Under the pieces are notes generated by a model. It ran no database searches. It saw only the letters and a program-made list of their open reading frames with translations, and was not told the origin of the DNA. Shown one piece after another: positions 28,072-46,124 of a stretch of 46,124 nucleotides of DNA (position 1 is the stretch's first letter; each line of letters begins with the position of its first letter). The DNA comes from a virus (taxonomy: Duplodnaviria > Heunggongvirae > Uroviricota > Caudoviricetes). The stretch lies in the IMG/VR virus record IMGVR_UViG_2547132255_000002; one strand, 5' to 3'. Made by a program: the position numbers and the translations under genes.

Positions 28072-29490
28072 ATGCCTATTCAGCAACTTCCGCTTATGAA
28101 AGGTGTCGGCAAAGACTTTCGAAACGCCGACTATATCGACTATCTGCCAGTGAATATGTTGGCCACCCCCAAAGAAATCCTCAACAGCAGCGGATATCTT
28201 CGCTCATTCCCGGGCATTGCCAAACGATCTGATGTGAACGGTGTATCTCGCGGCGTCGAGTACAACATGGCGCAGAGTGCTGTTTATCGCGTGTGTGGTG
28301 GCAAACTGTACAAAGGAGAAAGTGAGGTCGGTGATGTTGCCGGAAGTGGTCGCGTATCAATGGCGCATGGTCGGACATCACAGGCGGTAGGCGTTAATGG
28401 TCAACTTATCGAGTATCGCTATGATGGCACGGTTAAAACCGTCTCAAACTGGCCTACAGACAGTGGATTCACGCAGTATGAGTTAGGCTCAGTCCGCGAC
28501 ATTACGCGCTTGCGTGGGCGTTATGCGTGGTCAAAAGACGGCACTGATTCATGGTTTATCACTGACCTTGAAGACGAATCACATCCTGACCGATACAGCG
28601 CACAATATCGTGCCGAGTCTCAGCCTGACGGCATCATCGGTATCGGAACATGGCGAGACTTCATCGTCTGCTTTGGTTCATCGACGATTGAATATTTCTC
28701 CCTGACGGGGGCAACCACCGTTGGTGCCGCTTTGTATGTCGCCCAGCCATCGCTGATGGTGCAGAAAGGCATTGCCGGGACTTACTGCAAAACGCCATTC
28801 TCTGATTCATATGCGTTCATCAGCAATCCGGCAACAGGTGCGCCGTCTGTGTACATCATCGGCTCCGGTCAGGCATCACCAATCGCCAGCGCGAGCATTG
28901 AGAAAATACTACGCTCCTACACTGCTGATGAACTGGCTGATGGCGTGATGGAGTCTCTGCGATTTGATGCGCATGAGTTGCTGATTATTCACCTGCCGCG
29001 CCATGTACTCGTGTACGACGCATCTTCAAGCGCCAATGGTCCGCAATGGTGTGTGTTGAAAACTGGCTTGTATGACGATGTGTACCGCGCTATCGACTTC
29101 ATTTACGAAGGCAATCAGATAACGTGCGGCGATAAGCTGGAATCGGTTACCGGTAAATTGCAGTTCGATATCAGCAGCCAGTATGGTCTTCAACAGGAAC
29201 ATATTTTATATTCTCCTTTAATAAAGGCAGATAACGCTTTAATAAATGACCTTGAATTAGAAACATCGGGCGGCGTGTGTGATAGAATAGATAAAATATT
29301 TATATCAGCCACTACAGATGGAATTAGTTACGGTCGTGAGCAAATGGTCGTATTACAAAAACCATTTGTATATGACAATCGCGTTTTATGGCGAAAAGTT
29401 GGTCGAGTTAGACGCCTCATTGGATTTAAATTCAGAGTTATTGCAAAAGGTCCTGTTACATTATCAGGCCTTTCTATTCGTGTAACATAA
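28072..29490 (+). CDS. Head completion protein (P22 gp10-like)
   Basis: 472 aa, same length as P22 gp10; synteny. Confidence 0.65.
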   Translation: MPIQQLPLMKGVGKDFRNADYIDYLPVNMLATPKEILNSSGYLRSFPGIAKRSDVNGVSRGVEYNMAQSAVYRVCGGKLYKGESEVGDVAGSGRVSMAHGRTSQAVGVNGQLIEYRYDGTVKTVSNWPTDSGFTQYELGSVRDITRLRGRYAWSKDGTDSWFITDLEDESHPDRYSAQYRAESQPDGIIGIGTWRDFIVCFGSSTIEYFSLTGATTVGAALYVAQPSLMVQKGIAGTYCKTPFSDSYAFISNPATGAPSVYIIGSGQASPIASASIEKILRSYTADELADGVMESLRFDAHELLIIHLPRHVLVYDASSSANGPQWCVLKTGLYDDVYRAIDFIYEGNQITCGDKLESVTGKLQFDISSQYGLQQEHILYSPLIKADNALINDLELETSGGVCDRIDKIFISATTDGISYGREQMVVLQKPFVYDNRVLWRKVGRVRRLIGFKFRVIAKGPVTLSGLSIRVT

Positions 29491-29511
29491 ATCGAAACTA
29501 AAGGAGTAGAT

Positions 29512-30056
29512 ATGTTGAGTGAAAACGCAAAAGATATTCCTGGATATGAAGGTTTATATGCCGTAACAGAGGATGGGCGAGTATATTCTCACTCACGTGT
29601 TGTTAAGGCTGCGCATGGCAGCACGCAACTCAGAAAGGGGCGGTGGCTAAAACAACACGAGAATAATAAAGGTTATCTATATTTGCCACTTAGTGTTGAT
29701 GGAGTTAAAGTAAAATGGCTTGTGCATAGGCTTGTCGCTCTTGCTTTCGTCCCCAATCCAGAAGGCAAGCCGTTCATAAATCACATAGATAACAACCGAA
29801 AAATAATAATGCTTCTAATTTAGAGTGGTGTACTCAAAAGGAGAATATGAAGCATTGCTCATCTCAAGGCAGGGTGAAGTTTCCGGCTTTAAAAGGAGAA
29901 AATAATCCAATTTCAAAGCTCTCATATGAGCAAGTAATAGAAATAAAGAAATCAAAGGGAGTTAATCAAAGAGAGCTTGCTAAAAAATACTGTGTCAGTC
30001 AGACGGTGATTCACAATATCCAGTCTGGTAAATCGTGGAGGCATGTTAATGGCTGA
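29512..30056 (+). pseudogene. HNH homing endonuclease (NUMOD4 plus HNH_3), frame broken at an A5 run (29799-29803)
   Basis: Frame 1 gives IPGYEGLYAVTEDGRVYS...FINHIDNNRK then stops; frame 3 continues NNASNLEWCTQKENMKHC...; one extra A would restore HIDNNRKNNNASNLEW. Confidence 0.65.
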
Positions 30057-30897
30057 TTCGAATCTCAACACCCCTGTTATTGTTCAGGCGACGCAGCTCG
30101 ATACATCAATCCTTCCACGCAATATCTTCTCGCAGTCGTATCTGCTTTACGTTATCGCACAGGGTACTGATGTTGGTAACGTGGCGAACAAGGCCAACGA
30201 GGCCGGACAGGGCGCTTATGACGCACAAGTCAGGAACGATGAGCAGGATGTGATTCTCGCTGACCATGAGCAGCGAATTTCTGCTGCGGAAGCAACGCTT
30301 GTTAATCATGAGGAGCGAATCAGCCAGGCAGAATCAACTCTTCAGGAACATGAAACACGAATAGCGCAGAATGAAAGCGATATTGCGTCGCTTGATACCA
30401 GAGTTCAGTCGCTGGAGTCGCAGGTTTCAGACCATGAAACGCGCATTGATGCTCTGGAGTATGCAACCACGCGCAAGAAGTCAGAGGTTGTTTACTCTGG
30501 CGTATCAGTAACCATTCCGACAGCGCCGACCAACCTTGTTAGCCTGCTGAAAACGCTCACGCCGTCATCAGGCTCGTTGGCACCATTCTTCGACACCGTT
30601 AACAACAAGATGGTTGTGTTCAACGAGAACAAAACCCTGCTCTTCAAGTTGTCGATTGTCGGCACGTGGCCCAGCGGAACCTCCAACAGGTCAATGCAGC
30701 TAACCTTTTCCGGCTCTGTTCCTGACACACTGGTAAGCAGTCGCAACTCGGCGACAACAACCGATAACATTCTGTTAGCTACGTTCTTCAGCGTGGATAA
30801 AGACGGCTTTCTTGCCACAAATGGCAGTACGTTAACCATTCAGTCAAATGGTGCGGCGTTTACTGCCACAACCATCAAAATCATTGCGGAGCAGTGA
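30049..30897 (+). CDS. Tail needle (P22 gp26-like) with C-terminal knob
   Basis: [43 protein letters not shown]... matches the P22 gp26 N-terminus; heptad coiled coil; extra ~100-aa C-terminal domain. Confidence 0.85.
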
Positions 30898-31376
30898 TGG
30901 AAATAAAGCTCATCGATAATCCGGTGAAGCTTGCAGAATTCCTCAACAACCCGGCAAACACGGGAAATATCGTAGACAGTGGAGATAAATACTACATCAA
31001 GCCTGATGCGGTATATCTCGGCATCTACGAAGGATTAGTGCTGGCTGGAGTTCATGAAGTGCGCAACTTCTGGCATAGCGTTGTTGAATGCCATGCGGTG
31101 TACGACCCCGGATTCCGTGGTGAATATGCACTGCAAGGGCATCGATTATTCTGCAAATGGCTTCTCGAAAACTCACCATTCCTTAACAGCATCACCATGG
31201 TTCCTGACACAACGAAATACGGACGGGCAATTATCCGTTTGCTTGGCGCTACCCGTGTTGGTCACCTTGATGATGCTTATACCAGCAATGGAAAGCCTGT
31301 AGGCATCACGATTTATCAGTTACCGCGCTCAAAATACGAGGAGCTAAAGAATGTTAATTTTCCAGATTGCCAATAA
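30894..31376 (+). CDS. P22 gp14-like protein
   Basis: 160 aa; synteny between needle and gp7-like gene. Confidence 0.55.
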
Positions 31377-31609
31377 GCACCTCAGCAAAGCTGTGTACTG
31401 CAAAGGTGGCAGTGATAGCGGTTCAAAGGCACAGGCACGCGCAACTGAAAAGGGCATCGAATTGCAGCGTGAAATGTGGCAGACGAACATGCAAAACCTT
31501 GCACCGTTCACGCCACTCGCTCAGCAGTACGTATCACAGTTGCAAAATCTTTCCTCTCTTCAGGGGCAAGGTCAGGCGCTTAACCAGTATTACAACTCCC
31601 AGCAGTACA

Positions 31610-33563
<1,954 letters not shown>

Positions 33564-33978
33564 GTACAAAGACCTTGCAGGTCAGGCGCGTTACCAGAGT
33601 CTGGCAGCAGCAGAGGCAACGGGTGGATTAGGCTCTACAGCAACAGGAAACCAGTTAGCAGCAATCGCACCTACACTCGGTCAAAACTGGCTGTCAGGTC
33701 AGATGAACAACTACAACAATCTGGCAAACATTGGCCTTGGTGCTCTTACAGGTCAGGCAAATGCCGGACAGACCTATGCAAACAATGCCAGTCAGTTGTA
33801 TCAACAGCAGGCAGCAGCAGTCGCAGCAAATGCCAACCGACCATCTACAGGTCAGAAATTGATTGGTGGAATAGGTTCTGGTGCTGCTATTGGTGGCAGT
33901 GTTGGTGGTCCATGGGGAGCAGCAATTGGTGCAGGTGTAGGTGCTCTCGGCTCTCTTCTTTACTGATGGAGGTGAACA

Positions 33979-40737: not shown

Positions 40738-43683
40738 ATGACAGACATTACAGCCAATGTTGTGGTAAGCATGCCTTCGCAACTCTTCACTATGGCGCGT
40801 TCTTTTAAAGCCGTAGCCAATGGCAAAATTTATATCGGTAAAATTGACACTGACCCGGTAAATCCTGAAAACCAGATTCAGGTTTATGTGGAGAACGAAG
40901 ACGGTTCTCACATTCCTGTTTCGCAACCAATAATGATTAACGCTGCTGGATATCCGGTATATAACGGACAGATTGCCAAATTCGTAACCGTGCAAGGCCA
41001 TTCTATGGCTGTTTATGATGCGTATGGTACACAGCAGTTCTATTTTCCTAATGTGCTGAAGTATGATCCTGATCAGTTACGGCAGCAATTAGAAGACCCA
41101 GATGGAGCGAATAAATACCCAAAACTTCAGATAGCAAGATGGAGAGACAGTTATGATGTAAGAGGTTGGGGGGCTATTGGTGATGGTGTTCATGATGATA
41201 CATCAGCTCTATCAGAATTACTTTCTGTTGCAACAGGTGGTGAAAAGATAGATGGGCGAGGGCTTACTTTTAAAGTATCAACTCTTCCAGATGTCAGTCG
41301 ATTTAAAAATGCTCGTTTTTTATTTGAGAGAATACCGGGTCAGCCTCTTTTTTATGCTTCTGAAGATTTTATCCAGGGAGAGTTATTTAAAATTACAGAT
41401 ACACCGTGGTACAACGCCTGGACGCAGGATAAAACGTTTGTATATGACAATGTCATCTATGCGCCTTTTATGGCTGGAGACCGCCATGGTGTAAATAACC
41501 TCCATGTTGCATGGGTTCGCTCAGGAGATGACGGGAAGACCTGGACAACGCCGGAATGGCTTACAGATTTACATGAAAACTATCCCACAGTTAACTATCA
41601 CTGCATGAGTATGGGGGTTGTCAGAAATCGCCTTTTTGCTGTAATTGAGACGCGGACCGTGAGCGGAAATAAACTGCAGGTTGCAGAGTTGTGGGATCGC
41701 CCAATGAGTCGCAGCCTTCGCGTTTATGGTGGTATAACGAAAGCAGCAAATCAGCAAGTCGCTTATATTCGCATTACTGATCACGGATTATTTGCTGGTG
41801 ATTTTGTCAACTTCTCAAACTCTGGTGTTACAGGTGTTACCGGGAATATGACGGTGACTACTGTTATTGATAAAAATACTTTTACAGTTACGACGCAAAA
41901 TACCCAGGATGTGGATCAGAATAACGAGGGTAGATACTGGAGTTTTGGTACATCATTTCACTCGTCACCATGGAGAAAAACCAGTCTTGGAACTATTCCT
42001 TCTTTTGTTGACGGAAGCACTCCTGTTACTGAGATTCATAGTTTTGCGACGATTAGCGATAACAGTTTTGCTGTTGGCTACCATAATGGTGATATTGATC
42101 CACGTGAGCTTGGGATACTCTATTTCTCTGATGCTTTCGGTTCTCCTGGTAGCTTTGTTCGCAGACGCATACCTGCAGAATATGAGGCGAATGCATCTGA
42201 GCCATGTGTAAAATATTATGATGGCATTCTGTATCTGACGACCAGGGGGACATTAAGTACTCAACCCGGTAGTTCATTGCACAGAAGCTCTGATTTAGGT
42301 ACATCATGGAATTCTCTTCGCTTCCCAAATAATGTTCATCACTCAAACCTTCCTTTTGCCAAAGTTGGCGATGAGCTGATTATTTTTGGCAGTGAGCGCG
42401 CATTTGGTGAGTGGGAAGGAGGAGAACCTGATAACCGTTATGCAGGAAATTATCCAAGAACATTTATGACCAGAGTTAACGTCAATGAGTGGAGTCTGGA
42501 TAATGTAGAGTGGGTTAATGTTACTGATCAGATTTATCAGGGCGGAATAGTTAACTCTGCGGTTGGTGTTGGTTCAGTTTGTATCAAAGACAACTGGCTG
42601 TACTACATTTTCGGTGGGGAAGACTTTCTAAACCCATGGAGCATAGGGGATAACAACAGAAAATATCCTTATGTTCACGATGGTCACCCGGCTGATTTGT
42701 ATTGTTTCAGGGTGAAAATTAAACAGGAAGAATTTGTTTCAAGGGATTTTGTCTACGGAGCCACTCCTAACAGAACGCTTCCTACTTTTATGTCGACGTC
42801 AGGCGTGAGGACGGTTCCTGTACCCGTTGATTTCACAGATGATGTTGCCGTCCAGTCACTGACTGTCCATGCAGGTACATCAGGACAAGTTCGCGCGGAA
42901 GTCAAACTTGAGGGTAATTACGCCATTATTGCGAAGAAAGTACCGTCTGATGATGTTACCGCTCAGAGATTAATCGTTAGCGGAGGTGAAACAACGTCTT
43001 CAGCAGATGGTGCAATGATAACGTTGCATGGTTCCGGAAGCAGTACTCCACGTCGCGCGGTATATAACGCACTCGAACATCTTTTTGAGAACGGAGATGT
43101 TAAACCTTATCTTGATAATGTAAATGCTCTTGGTGGTCCGGGAAACAGGTTCTCGACAGTTTATCTTGGCTCCAATCCTGTGGTTACCAGTGACGGAACA
43201 TTAAAGACAGAGCCGGTCTCTCCTGACGAAGCATTGCTGGATGCCTGGGGTGACGTCAGGTATATCGCTTATAAATGGCTGAACGCTGTCGCTATAAAGG
43301 GGGAAGAAGGGGCGAGGATACATCATGGTGTAATCGCGCAGCAACTTCGTGATGTTCTTATTTCTCACGGACTCATGGAAGAAGAAAGCACAACATGCCG
43401 CTATGCCTTTCTTTGCTATGACGATTATCCCGCAGTATATGATGACGTCATTACTGGCCAAAGGGAAATGCCGCTGACTGATAATGACGGGAGCATCATT
43501 GTTGATGAGGATGATAATCCAGTGATGGTAATGGAAGACATCATTGAGCGCGTTGAAATAACGCCAGCAGGATCTAGATGGGGGGTCAGACCTGATCTCT
43601 TATTCTATATCGAGGCAGCATGGCAGCGCAGAGAAATAGAAAGAATAAAAGCTAGGTTAGACTTAATAGAAGGGAAGCACTAA
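40738..43683 (+). CDS. Tailspike: P22 gp9-like head-binding domain, endosialidase-like receptor domain, C-terminal intramolecular chaperone
   Basis: N-terminal ~115 aa ([43 protein letters not shown]...) match P22 gp9; two Asp-boxes SGDDGKTW and SSDLGTSW; ~160-aa C-terminal tail after a TSD site. Confidence 0.8.
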
Positions 43684-44993: not shown

Positions 44994-46124
44994 ATGAAAC
45001 GCGCATATAAATACCGGTTTTACCCGACAACTGAGCAGGCTGAGCTTTTAGCTCAGACGTTTGGCTGTGTGCGCTTCGTCTACAATTCCATCCTTCGTTG
45101 GCGTACCGATGCGTACTACGAGCGAAAAGAAAAGATCGGTTATCTACAGGCCAACGCTCGCCTTACGGCGCTCAAAAAAGAGCCTGAATACATATGGCTG
45201 AATGATGTTTCCTGCGTTCCCCTCCAGCAGTCGTTGCGCCACCAACAAGCCGCCTTTGCTAACTTCTTTGCCGGACGAGCTGCATATCCGGCTTTCAAAA
45301 GCAAACGGCACAAACAGGTGGCTGAGTTCACTGCCAGCGCGTTTAAACACCGTGACGGCGAGTTGTATATAGCAAAGAGCAAGTCGCCGCTGGATGTTCG
45401 CTGGAGTCGAGAATTACCATCTGCGCCGTCAACCGTTACCATTTCCAGAGATAGCGCTGGCAGGTACTTTGTTTCCTGCCTGTGTGAGTTTGAACCTGTA
45501 TCAATGCCTGTTACCGCTAAAACGGTCGGCATTGATGTGGGCTTAAAAGATTTATTCGTCACCGATACCGGATTCAAAACCGACAATCCCCGCCACACCG
45601 CTAAATATGCGAAGCGATTAACGCTGCTACAGCGACGTTTAAGCAGGAAGCAAAAAGGCTCAAGAAACCGAATTAAAGCCCGCTTAAAGGTCGCCCGACT
45701 CCACGCGAAAATCGCCGATTGCCGGATGGACAATCTGCACAAGTTGTCCCGCAAACTGATTAACGAAAACCAAGTTGTTTGCGTCGAATCCCTCAAGGTG
45801 AAAAACATGATCCGCAACCCGAAGCTGTCTAAAGCAATAGCTGACGCAGGCTGGAGCGAACTTGTTCGCCAGCTCCAGTACAAAGGCAAATGGGCCGGGC
45901 GGTCAGTGGTCGCCATTGACCAGTATTTACCGTCCTCAAAATGCTGTAGTTGCTGCGGTTTCACCATGCAAAAAATGCCTCTTAATGTTCGTAAATGGCA
46001 CTGCCCTGAATGCGGCGCAGACCATGATCGCGACATTAACGCGGCACGTAATATTAAAGCTGCCGGGCTGGCAGTGTTAGCCCACGGAGAGCCTGTAAAC
46101 CCTGAATCGCAGCACGCGGCTTAG
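44994..46124 (+). CDS. tnpB: IS200/IS605-family TnpB (OrfB) RuvC-like nuclease, no adjacent TnpA
   Basis: 376 aa; N-terminus MKRAYKYRFYPTTEQAELL typical of OrfB/TnpB; C-terminal zinc finger CCGFTMQKMPLNVRKWHCPECGADHDRDINAARNI. Confidence 0.8.
   Translation: MKRAYKYRFYPTTEQAELLAQTFGCVRFVYNSILRWRTDAYYERKEKIGYLQANARLTALKKEPEYIWLNDVSCVPLQQSLRHQQAAFANFFAGRAAYPAFKSKRHKQVAEFTASAFKHRDGELYIAKSKSPLDVRWSRELPSAPSTVTISRDSAGRYFVSCLCEFEPVSMPVTAKTVGIDVGLKDLFVTDTGFKTDNPRHTAKYAKRLTLLQRRLSRKQKGSRNRIKARLKVARLHAKIADCRMDNLHKLSRKLINENQVVCVESLKVKNMIRNPKLSKAIADAGWSELVRQLQYKGKWAGRSVVAIDQYLPSSKCCSCCGFTMQKMPLNVRKWHCPECGADHDRDINAARNIKAAGLAVLAHGEPVNPESQHAA

Follow-up and report, generated by a model that had tools for sequence, protein, structure and literature searches.

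A frameshifted HNH/NUMOD4 endonuclease gene of homing type and its associated variant gp10 3′ end at the gp10/needle junction of a P22-like prophage

The stretch of DNA analyzed here, hereafter the window (46,124 nt; IMG/VR record IMGVR_UViG_2547132255_000002, Caudoviricetes), is, judged by its tailspike, a CUS-3-like, P22-like prophage of a K1 E. coli. A preliminary description, made from the letters of the window, had recognized an HNH/NUMOD4 endonuclease gene inserted into the otherwise syntenic morphogenesis cluster, between a gp10-like gene and the needle gene, with a reading frame that breaks in a run of five A's. The features of this junction are as follows:

27581-28063: gp4 (PF11650)
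28072..29490, + strand: gp10, head closure / packaged-DNA stabilization protein, intact, 472 aa (PF11134, E 6e-280)
29202..29490, + strand: divergent 3′ segment of gp10, linked to the endonuclease gene and presumably its co-converted or immunity flank
29488..30046, + strand: insertion of net 559 nt, as aligned against the endonuclease-less Sf6 and HK620
29501..29506, + strand: Shine-Dalgarno sequence AAGGAG, 5 nt 5′ of the endonuclease ATG, read in the sequence and identical in all carriers
29512..29823, + strand: ORF A, N-terminal fragment of 103 aa with the NUMOD4 region and the first His of the HNH motif (H91)
29799..29803, + strand: A5 run, the frameshift site; A6 in relatives
29847..30056, + strand: ORF B, C-terminal fragment of 69 aa with a helix-turn-helix tail (HTH_3, E 9e-4, below cut-off)
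30049..30897, + strand: tail needle gene, gp26 homologue with an Sf6-type knob (PF16532, E 1e-115)
30894-31376: gene 14 homologue (DUF2824)

Both neighbours of the endonuclease gene are what they had been taken to be, as their Pfam matches indicate, and the gp10 of the window has the same length as those of Sf6 and HK620. Homology with Sf6 and HK620, together with the RefSeq annotation of relatives, places the start of the needle gene at ATG 30049 (MADSNLN...), the longest mechanically defined ORF beginning at ATG 30043. Alignment with the same two phages bounds the insertion by the TAA at 29488-29490 on one side and by the TAA of TAATGG at 30047-30049 on the other. Within it, ORF A extends from ATG 29512 to TAG 29821-29823 and, after the region of H91, runs through six out-of-frame codons before it stops (C-terminal end NHIDNNRKIIMLLI; final residues before the TAG, as translated, PFINHIDNNRKIIMLLI). 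ORF B, whose frame lies one base behind that of ORF A (−1) and is open from approximately 29793, starts at ATG 29847, just past the metal-binding Asn of the HNH motif, and stops at TGA 30054-30056. An AAGGAG at 29838-29843 lies 3 nt 5′ of its ATG and a small helix-turn-helix peptide might be produced from it; no sign of any function was found for ORF B. The TGA overlaps the start of the needle gene in ATGGCTGA, an overlap that had also been described. The needle gene has its own GGAGG (30037-30041, 7 nt 5′ of its ATG) within the end of the endonuclease ORF, and Sf6 has a Shine-Dalgarno sequence at the equivalent position, inside the end of gp10. Given this ribosome-binding site of its own, the premature endonuclease stop should have only a small polar effect on needle expression.

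The run at 29799-29803 reads as exactly five A's. Insertion of one A fuses ORF A and ORF B into a single ORF of 181 aa, within which HIDNNRKNNNASNLEWCTQKEN and NHIDNNRKNNNASNLEWCTQKENMKH are read, and restores the HNH motif as proposed in the preliminary description. The repaired protein matches NUMOD4 (E 2.4e-11) and HNH_3 (E 1.7e-10; 40.8 bits against a cut-off of 24.8), both above the curated Pfam cut-offs, and its C-terminus gives an HTH_3 match below the curated cut-off. Taken singly, neither ORF yields the HNH_3 match in Pfam: ORF A matches only NUMOD4 (PF07463, E 9e-12, residues 7-60), and ORF B gives only a weak match to HTH_3. The best match of the repaired protein among solved structures is I-HmuI (1U3E, E 2e-12), with which both the NUMOD4 and HNH regions align, His75 of I-HmuI lying opposite H91 and Asn96 opposite N112. 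In I-HmuI the first of these residues acts as the general base and the second as a metal ligand. The frame breaks after Lys97, between His91 and Asn112, so that H91 belongs to ORF A while N112 is coded just before the start of ORF B (M113), in a frame that is used by no ORF. In the window copy, general-base His and metal-ligand Asn are thus not found on one polypeptide, and because the break separates them neither fragment holds a complete beta-beta-alpha-metal active site. We infer that the window copy has no nuclease activity and would represent a pseudogene of the HNH_3/I-HmuI type family, not a working member, with ORFs A and B the two halves of one I-HmuI-like HNH/NUMOD4 endonuclease gene. 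The locus is accordingly better annotated as one pseudogene, a frameshifted HNH/NUMOD4 endonuclease gene, than as two hypothetical ORFs.

The gene was also correctly described as an insertion. gp10 ends 3 nt before gp26 in P22, its stop overlaps the gp26 start as TAATG in Sf6, HK620 and CUS-3, and no endonuclease insert is present at the gp10/gp26 junction of any of these four phages. A megablast search with positions 29400-30200 of the window returned 22 matching phage records, 21 of which match only from 30047 onward, where the TAATGG of the needle start lies; the exception is Escherichia phage HZ41, whose match spans the endonuclease gene with 97% identity. The 5′ end of the needle gene was detected in about 736 of 5426 complete E. 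coli genomes, and the window endonuclease gene in 16 of these approximately 736. Among close relatives the gene is therefore only sporadically present, at a precise point flanked by conserved genes. A full-text literature search, whose matches did not extend to the 2011 Virology paper of Casjens and Thuman-Commike, found no paper on this protein and none that reports such a gene between gp10 and gp26 in P22-like phages. An unrelated HNH fusion in the early-left operon is mentioned in the epsilon34 paper.

Intact relatives are abundant. The repaired protein is 100% identical to WP_021514124.1 (“NUMOD4 domain-containing protein”), and the intact 181-aa protein was found in at least 1000 public contigs as compared to 5 for the truncated 103-aa product, an A5 share of approximately 0.5%. 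The preliminary description had conceded that its reading would fail if homologous phages carried the two-ORF arrangement with no intact single-ORF relatives; the intact form is instead the overwhelming majority. Fifteen complete E. coli genomes and HZ41 carry the gene at this gp10/needle junction. The 15 uninterrupted E. coli copies all measure 567 nt, against 566 nt in the window, and bear a single CDS annotation; HZ41 and three of the three E. coli copies examined at the run have A6 and one ORF (546-nt CDS). In these copies the CDS lies 22 nt past the end of gp10 and shares 8 nt with the start of the needle gene. A sixteenth E. coli copy (M160133, locus L007, 2553-3250) bears an IS1A near the 5′ end of the endonuclease gene, an independent disruption.

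The five contigs with A5 are of two kinds. One, from the Logan assembly of SRR066815 (4731 nt), is 100% identical to positions 26908-31638 of the window and ends at the boundary of an insertion sequence; it comes from the same strain, or possibly from the same reads re-assembled by another pipeline. The other four differ by 3-5% from the window and from each other across the gp10, endonuclease and needle genes, carry differing silent SNPs in the endonuclease gene and are no closer to one another than to A6 carriers. We considered that A5 could be a clonally inherited marker, which the divergence of the flanks and the differing silent SNPs rule out. Since the four backgrounds are unrelated, A5 arose, or was miscalled, several times independently. 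Its presence in these four prophages could stem from repeated true loss, from repeated misreading or from selection, and we read the A6 tract as a probable small mutational hotspot.

The same data bear on whether the organism carries an intact gene, the A5 being a homopolymer error of sequencing or assembly with A6 miscalled. Only one homopolymer base is at issue, the repaired protein is otherwise 100% identical to the commonest allele, and A5 is as rare (5 against at least 1000 contigs) and as scattered over unrelated backgrounds as sporadic errors would be; SRR066815 is moreover an early accession number, presumably from a 2010-era platform and possibly from pyrosequencing. On the contrary, the separate Logan assembly of SRR066815 also has A5, which points to the consensus of the reads, possibly those of the window itself, and not to an artefact of one assembler, while consensus errors at 5- to 6-mers are uncommon at normal coverage. 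A read error also fits poorly with a decaying prophage that carries an insertion sequence inside gene 7. We consider such an error unlikely, and assign a probability of about 0.8 to the reading that the window holds a degenerate free-standing HNH homing endonuclease gene which would have undergone a real A6 to A5 loss.

The state of the prophage is apparent from other features of the window:

1419-2489: lambda-type integrase
31610-33563: IS21-family element, 1954 bp, with IstA at 32455-33477 (− strand) and IstB at 31676-32458 (− strand)
40738-43683: K1 endosialidase tailspike with a P22 head-binding domain (PF12217, PF12219, PF12195, PF12218, S74 chaperone domain)

The IS21-family element has imperfect terminal inverted repeats of 28 nt and is flanked by a 5-bp duplication, GTACA (31605-31609 and 33564-33568). 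It splits ejection gene 7 after approximately codon 86, leaving an N-terminal ORF of 93 codons (31351-31632) that hits PF25688. With an insertion sequence in gene 7 the prophage is defective, and a defective prophage maintains neither phage nor endonuclease function, which fits a real inactivating mutation. Taken alone, the frameshift is an ordinary step of decay in a prophage that an IS had already disabled. An IS605 OrfB/TnpB-like ORF (44994-46124; PF01385, PF07282, PF12323) runs off the end of the window.

The two-ORF form could alternatively be functional, through programmed −1 frameshifting, transcriptional slippage or a reversible on/off switch in the A tract. ORF B does lie in the −1 frame relative to ORF A, the sequence A_AAA_AUA would permit the P-site tRNA-Lys to slip to AAA with AUA, a rare codon in E. 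coli, waiting in the A site, and A5 recurs on at least four haplotypes or backgrounds. However, the site is C_CGA_AAA_AUA, which has only five A's and forms no X_XXY_YYZ heptamer, no Shine-Dalgarno-like stimulator lies upstream of it, and the 97 nt downstream (29804-29900) fold at −21.3 kcal/mol, a z score of only −1.17 against shuffled sequences. Nor is the two-frame form conserved, the A6 single ORF being found in at least 1000 contigs against 5, and in HZ41. On the strength of these four checks (heptamer, Shine-Dalgarno-like element, RNA fold and conservation) we reject programmed frameshifting. Efficient transcriptional slippage takes an A/T run of at least 7-9 nt, for which five A's are too few. 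Overall, we regard a functional two-ORF form as exceedingly improbable. The A tract could also restrain a toxic endonuclease in a leaky or reversible manner, with traces of full-length enzyme made by −1 slippage and reversion of A5 to A6. If this were true, the cassette could stay silent in lysogens and homing activity could be regained; we hold it to be highly improbable.

Comparison of gp10 with that of Sf6 indicates that the endonuclease gene is not alone in setting this junction apart. Identity is 94.7% over the first 1130 nt of gp10 and drops to 55.7% (61% at the amino acid level) over the last 289 nt. In the phage collection this variant 3′ end occurs only in HZ41, the next best match (about 68%) being to a P22-type gp10. 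Fifty-six complete E. coli genomes carry it, and all 21 of those in which the junction was identified or inspected have an endonuclease gene there: 16 the window-type gene and 5 a different endonuclease gene at the exact position. Four of these five (K56-43-un, O111:H- 11128, K_EC180 and 503440) encode WP_000947776.1 (177 aa), and the fifth, KE40, encodes WP_042048397.1 (181 aa), which with WP_021514124.1 makes three allelic types at one site. Strain ES5, with an Sf6-type gp10 end, has no endonuclease gene at the gp10/needle junction.

The two other alleles occupy positions 2108-2653 of their loci (L015-L018). The WP_000947776.1 allele of K56-43-un begins with MLSENAKDI and ends with WRHVNG, as does the window gene. 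The variant gp10 end is also present in O111:H8/H- STEC and in porcine ETEC; the one O111 strain inspected (11128) has WP_000947776.1. We looked for a remnant of an Sf6-type gp10 3′ end past the endonuclease gene, and alignment returned only scattered matches (GTCTGG, TAATGG). Since the C-terminal WRHVNG is shared with another allele, we take this end region to be endonuclease coding sequence.

The mean pairwise difference among seven carriers was then followed along the region:

28139-29138: most of gp10, 4-9%
29139-29238: junction with the variant segment, 13%
29239-30037: variant gp10 end and endonuclease gene, 0-2.3%
30038 onward: needle gene, 11-50%

The peak of 13% at 29139-29238 probably marks where co-conversion tracts or recombination joints come to an end. 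This near-invariant block within diverged flanks has the appearance of a signature of intronless homing with a co-conversion tract. The profile argues for a mobile unit larger than the ORF, which would include the last ~289 nt of gp10, and a cassette of about 800 bp, composed of the endonuclease gene and the variant gp10 end, has clearly spread among related phages. The variant gp10 3′ end could also result from ordinary mosaic recombination and be linked to the gene by chance. The label “homing endonuclease” is applied here to a putative enzyme on the grounds of homology, distribution and this diversity profile.

Homing genes pass through a life cycle of invasion, fixation, degeneration and loss. 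In the scheme that we propose, the intact gene, having no promoter of its own, would be carried along in transcription of the late operon. In co-infected cells, or when a prophage and a phage meet, the enzyme would nick or cut an endonuclease-less allele in or near the gp10 3′ end, and repair with the carrier genome as template would introduce both the gene and the adjoining variant gp10 3′ end. The variant flank would presumably lack the recognition site, so that the carrier is protected. Most simply, the target would lie in or near the Sf6-type gp10 3′ end, and the variant end would confer immunity on carriers. Such a process would be intronless homing with co-conversion, like that of the T4 seg and mob genes, and the window copy would have become a dead gene upon loss of one A from its A6 tract.

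This scheme is consistent with the published account of free-standing phage endonucleases, which typically cut at a distance in a neighbouring conserved gene and drag flanking markers along, with co-conversion and marker exclusion (PMC2988022). As in the T4 mobA-mobE and seg cases (PMC2988022, PMC2790892), the window gene lies in a promoterless cassette between conserved genes of a polycistronic operon, is sporadic in close relatives, is inherited with a divergent flank and embeds the ribosome-binding site of an essential downstream gene (GGAGG 30037-30041). Unlike these cases, its host is a temperate P22-like podovirus or prophage and not a virulent T-even phage, and cleavage is putative; the T4 Mob proteins are not close sequence relatives, and neither they nor Seg proteins were found among the solved-structure matches. 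I-HmuI of Bacillus phage SPO1 (1U3E) offers the closer protein model: it likewise combines a NUMOD-type N-terminus, an HNH beta-beta-alpha-metal motif and a C-terminal helical DNA-binding tail, the alignment covers residues 7-152 and the general-base His and metal-ligand Asn are both kept in the repaired protein. I-HmuI differs in that it sits in a group I intron of a DNA polymerase gene, whereas the window gene is free-standing at an intergenic junction, and the two share approximately 35-40% identity over the aligned residues, the window copy being frameshifted. The WP_021514124.1 copies of E. coli P22-like prophages and HZ41 share with the window gene its position, its overlap and, once repaired, its entire protein; they differ from it in having A6 and an intact gene where the window has A5 and ORFs of 103 and 69 aa. 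The window copy also resembles the defunct T4 I-TevIII (PMC2790892), in which a small lesion kills the endonuclease ORF while the element persists and other copies in the population remain intact, although the lesion here is a single-base homopolymer deletion found in only about 0.5% of copies. The rarity of this lesion suggests that the family as a whole is still in an active, spreading phase.

We also considered that the HNH protein benefits the phage as an accessory factor lost here, either as a packaging or terminase helper like HK97 gp74 or as a nuclease directed against competitors. Its gene lies in the late morphogenesis operon, and some phage HNH proteins, HK97 gp74 among them, do have accessory roles. 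Yet most P22-like phages, which package by the headful (pac) mechanism, do without the gene, including P22, Sf6, HK620 and CUS-3; its best structural relative is a homing enzyme, down to the NUMOD-type DNA-binding N-terminus; and the low diversity of the cassette relative to its flanks, along with two other alleles at the site, fits selfish spread. An accessory role is in our judgment the least probable of the explanations considered.

The intact form is common and already carries a generic annotation in RefSeq; what is added here is modest, namely the structure of the cassette, the occupation of one site by three alleles and a further site at the opposite end of gp10. A decayed member of a homing endonuclease family at this junction provides a clear case of intronless homing among temperate P22-like phages, with a cassette of ~800 bp and a swapped C-terminal coding end of the essential gp10, and helps explain local mosaicism in a much-studied virion-assembly cluster in which gp10 is the probable target.

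The second site is the gp4/gp10 junction, where K56-43-un (locus L013, 2382-3107) and ES5 (locus L014, 2382-3106) carry a related HNH/NUMOD4 gene of 194 aa that shares its leader and first ~47 codons with the window gene at 88% DNA identity. The gene is preceded by a 93-nt remnant of an Sf6-type gp10 5′ end and followed by a recoded gp10 5′ end, whose start it overlaps. K56-43-un thereby has endonuclease genes on both sides of gp10. At roughly even odds, a homing site lies on either side of gp10 in P22-like phages, the divergent or recoded gp10 end that accompanies each gene providing immunity. In ES5, the gene at the gp4/gp10 site is split into ORFs of 83 and 108 aa by a break just before the HNH motif, and degeneration of these endonuclease genes is thus recurrent, as the life cycle of homing genes would predict.
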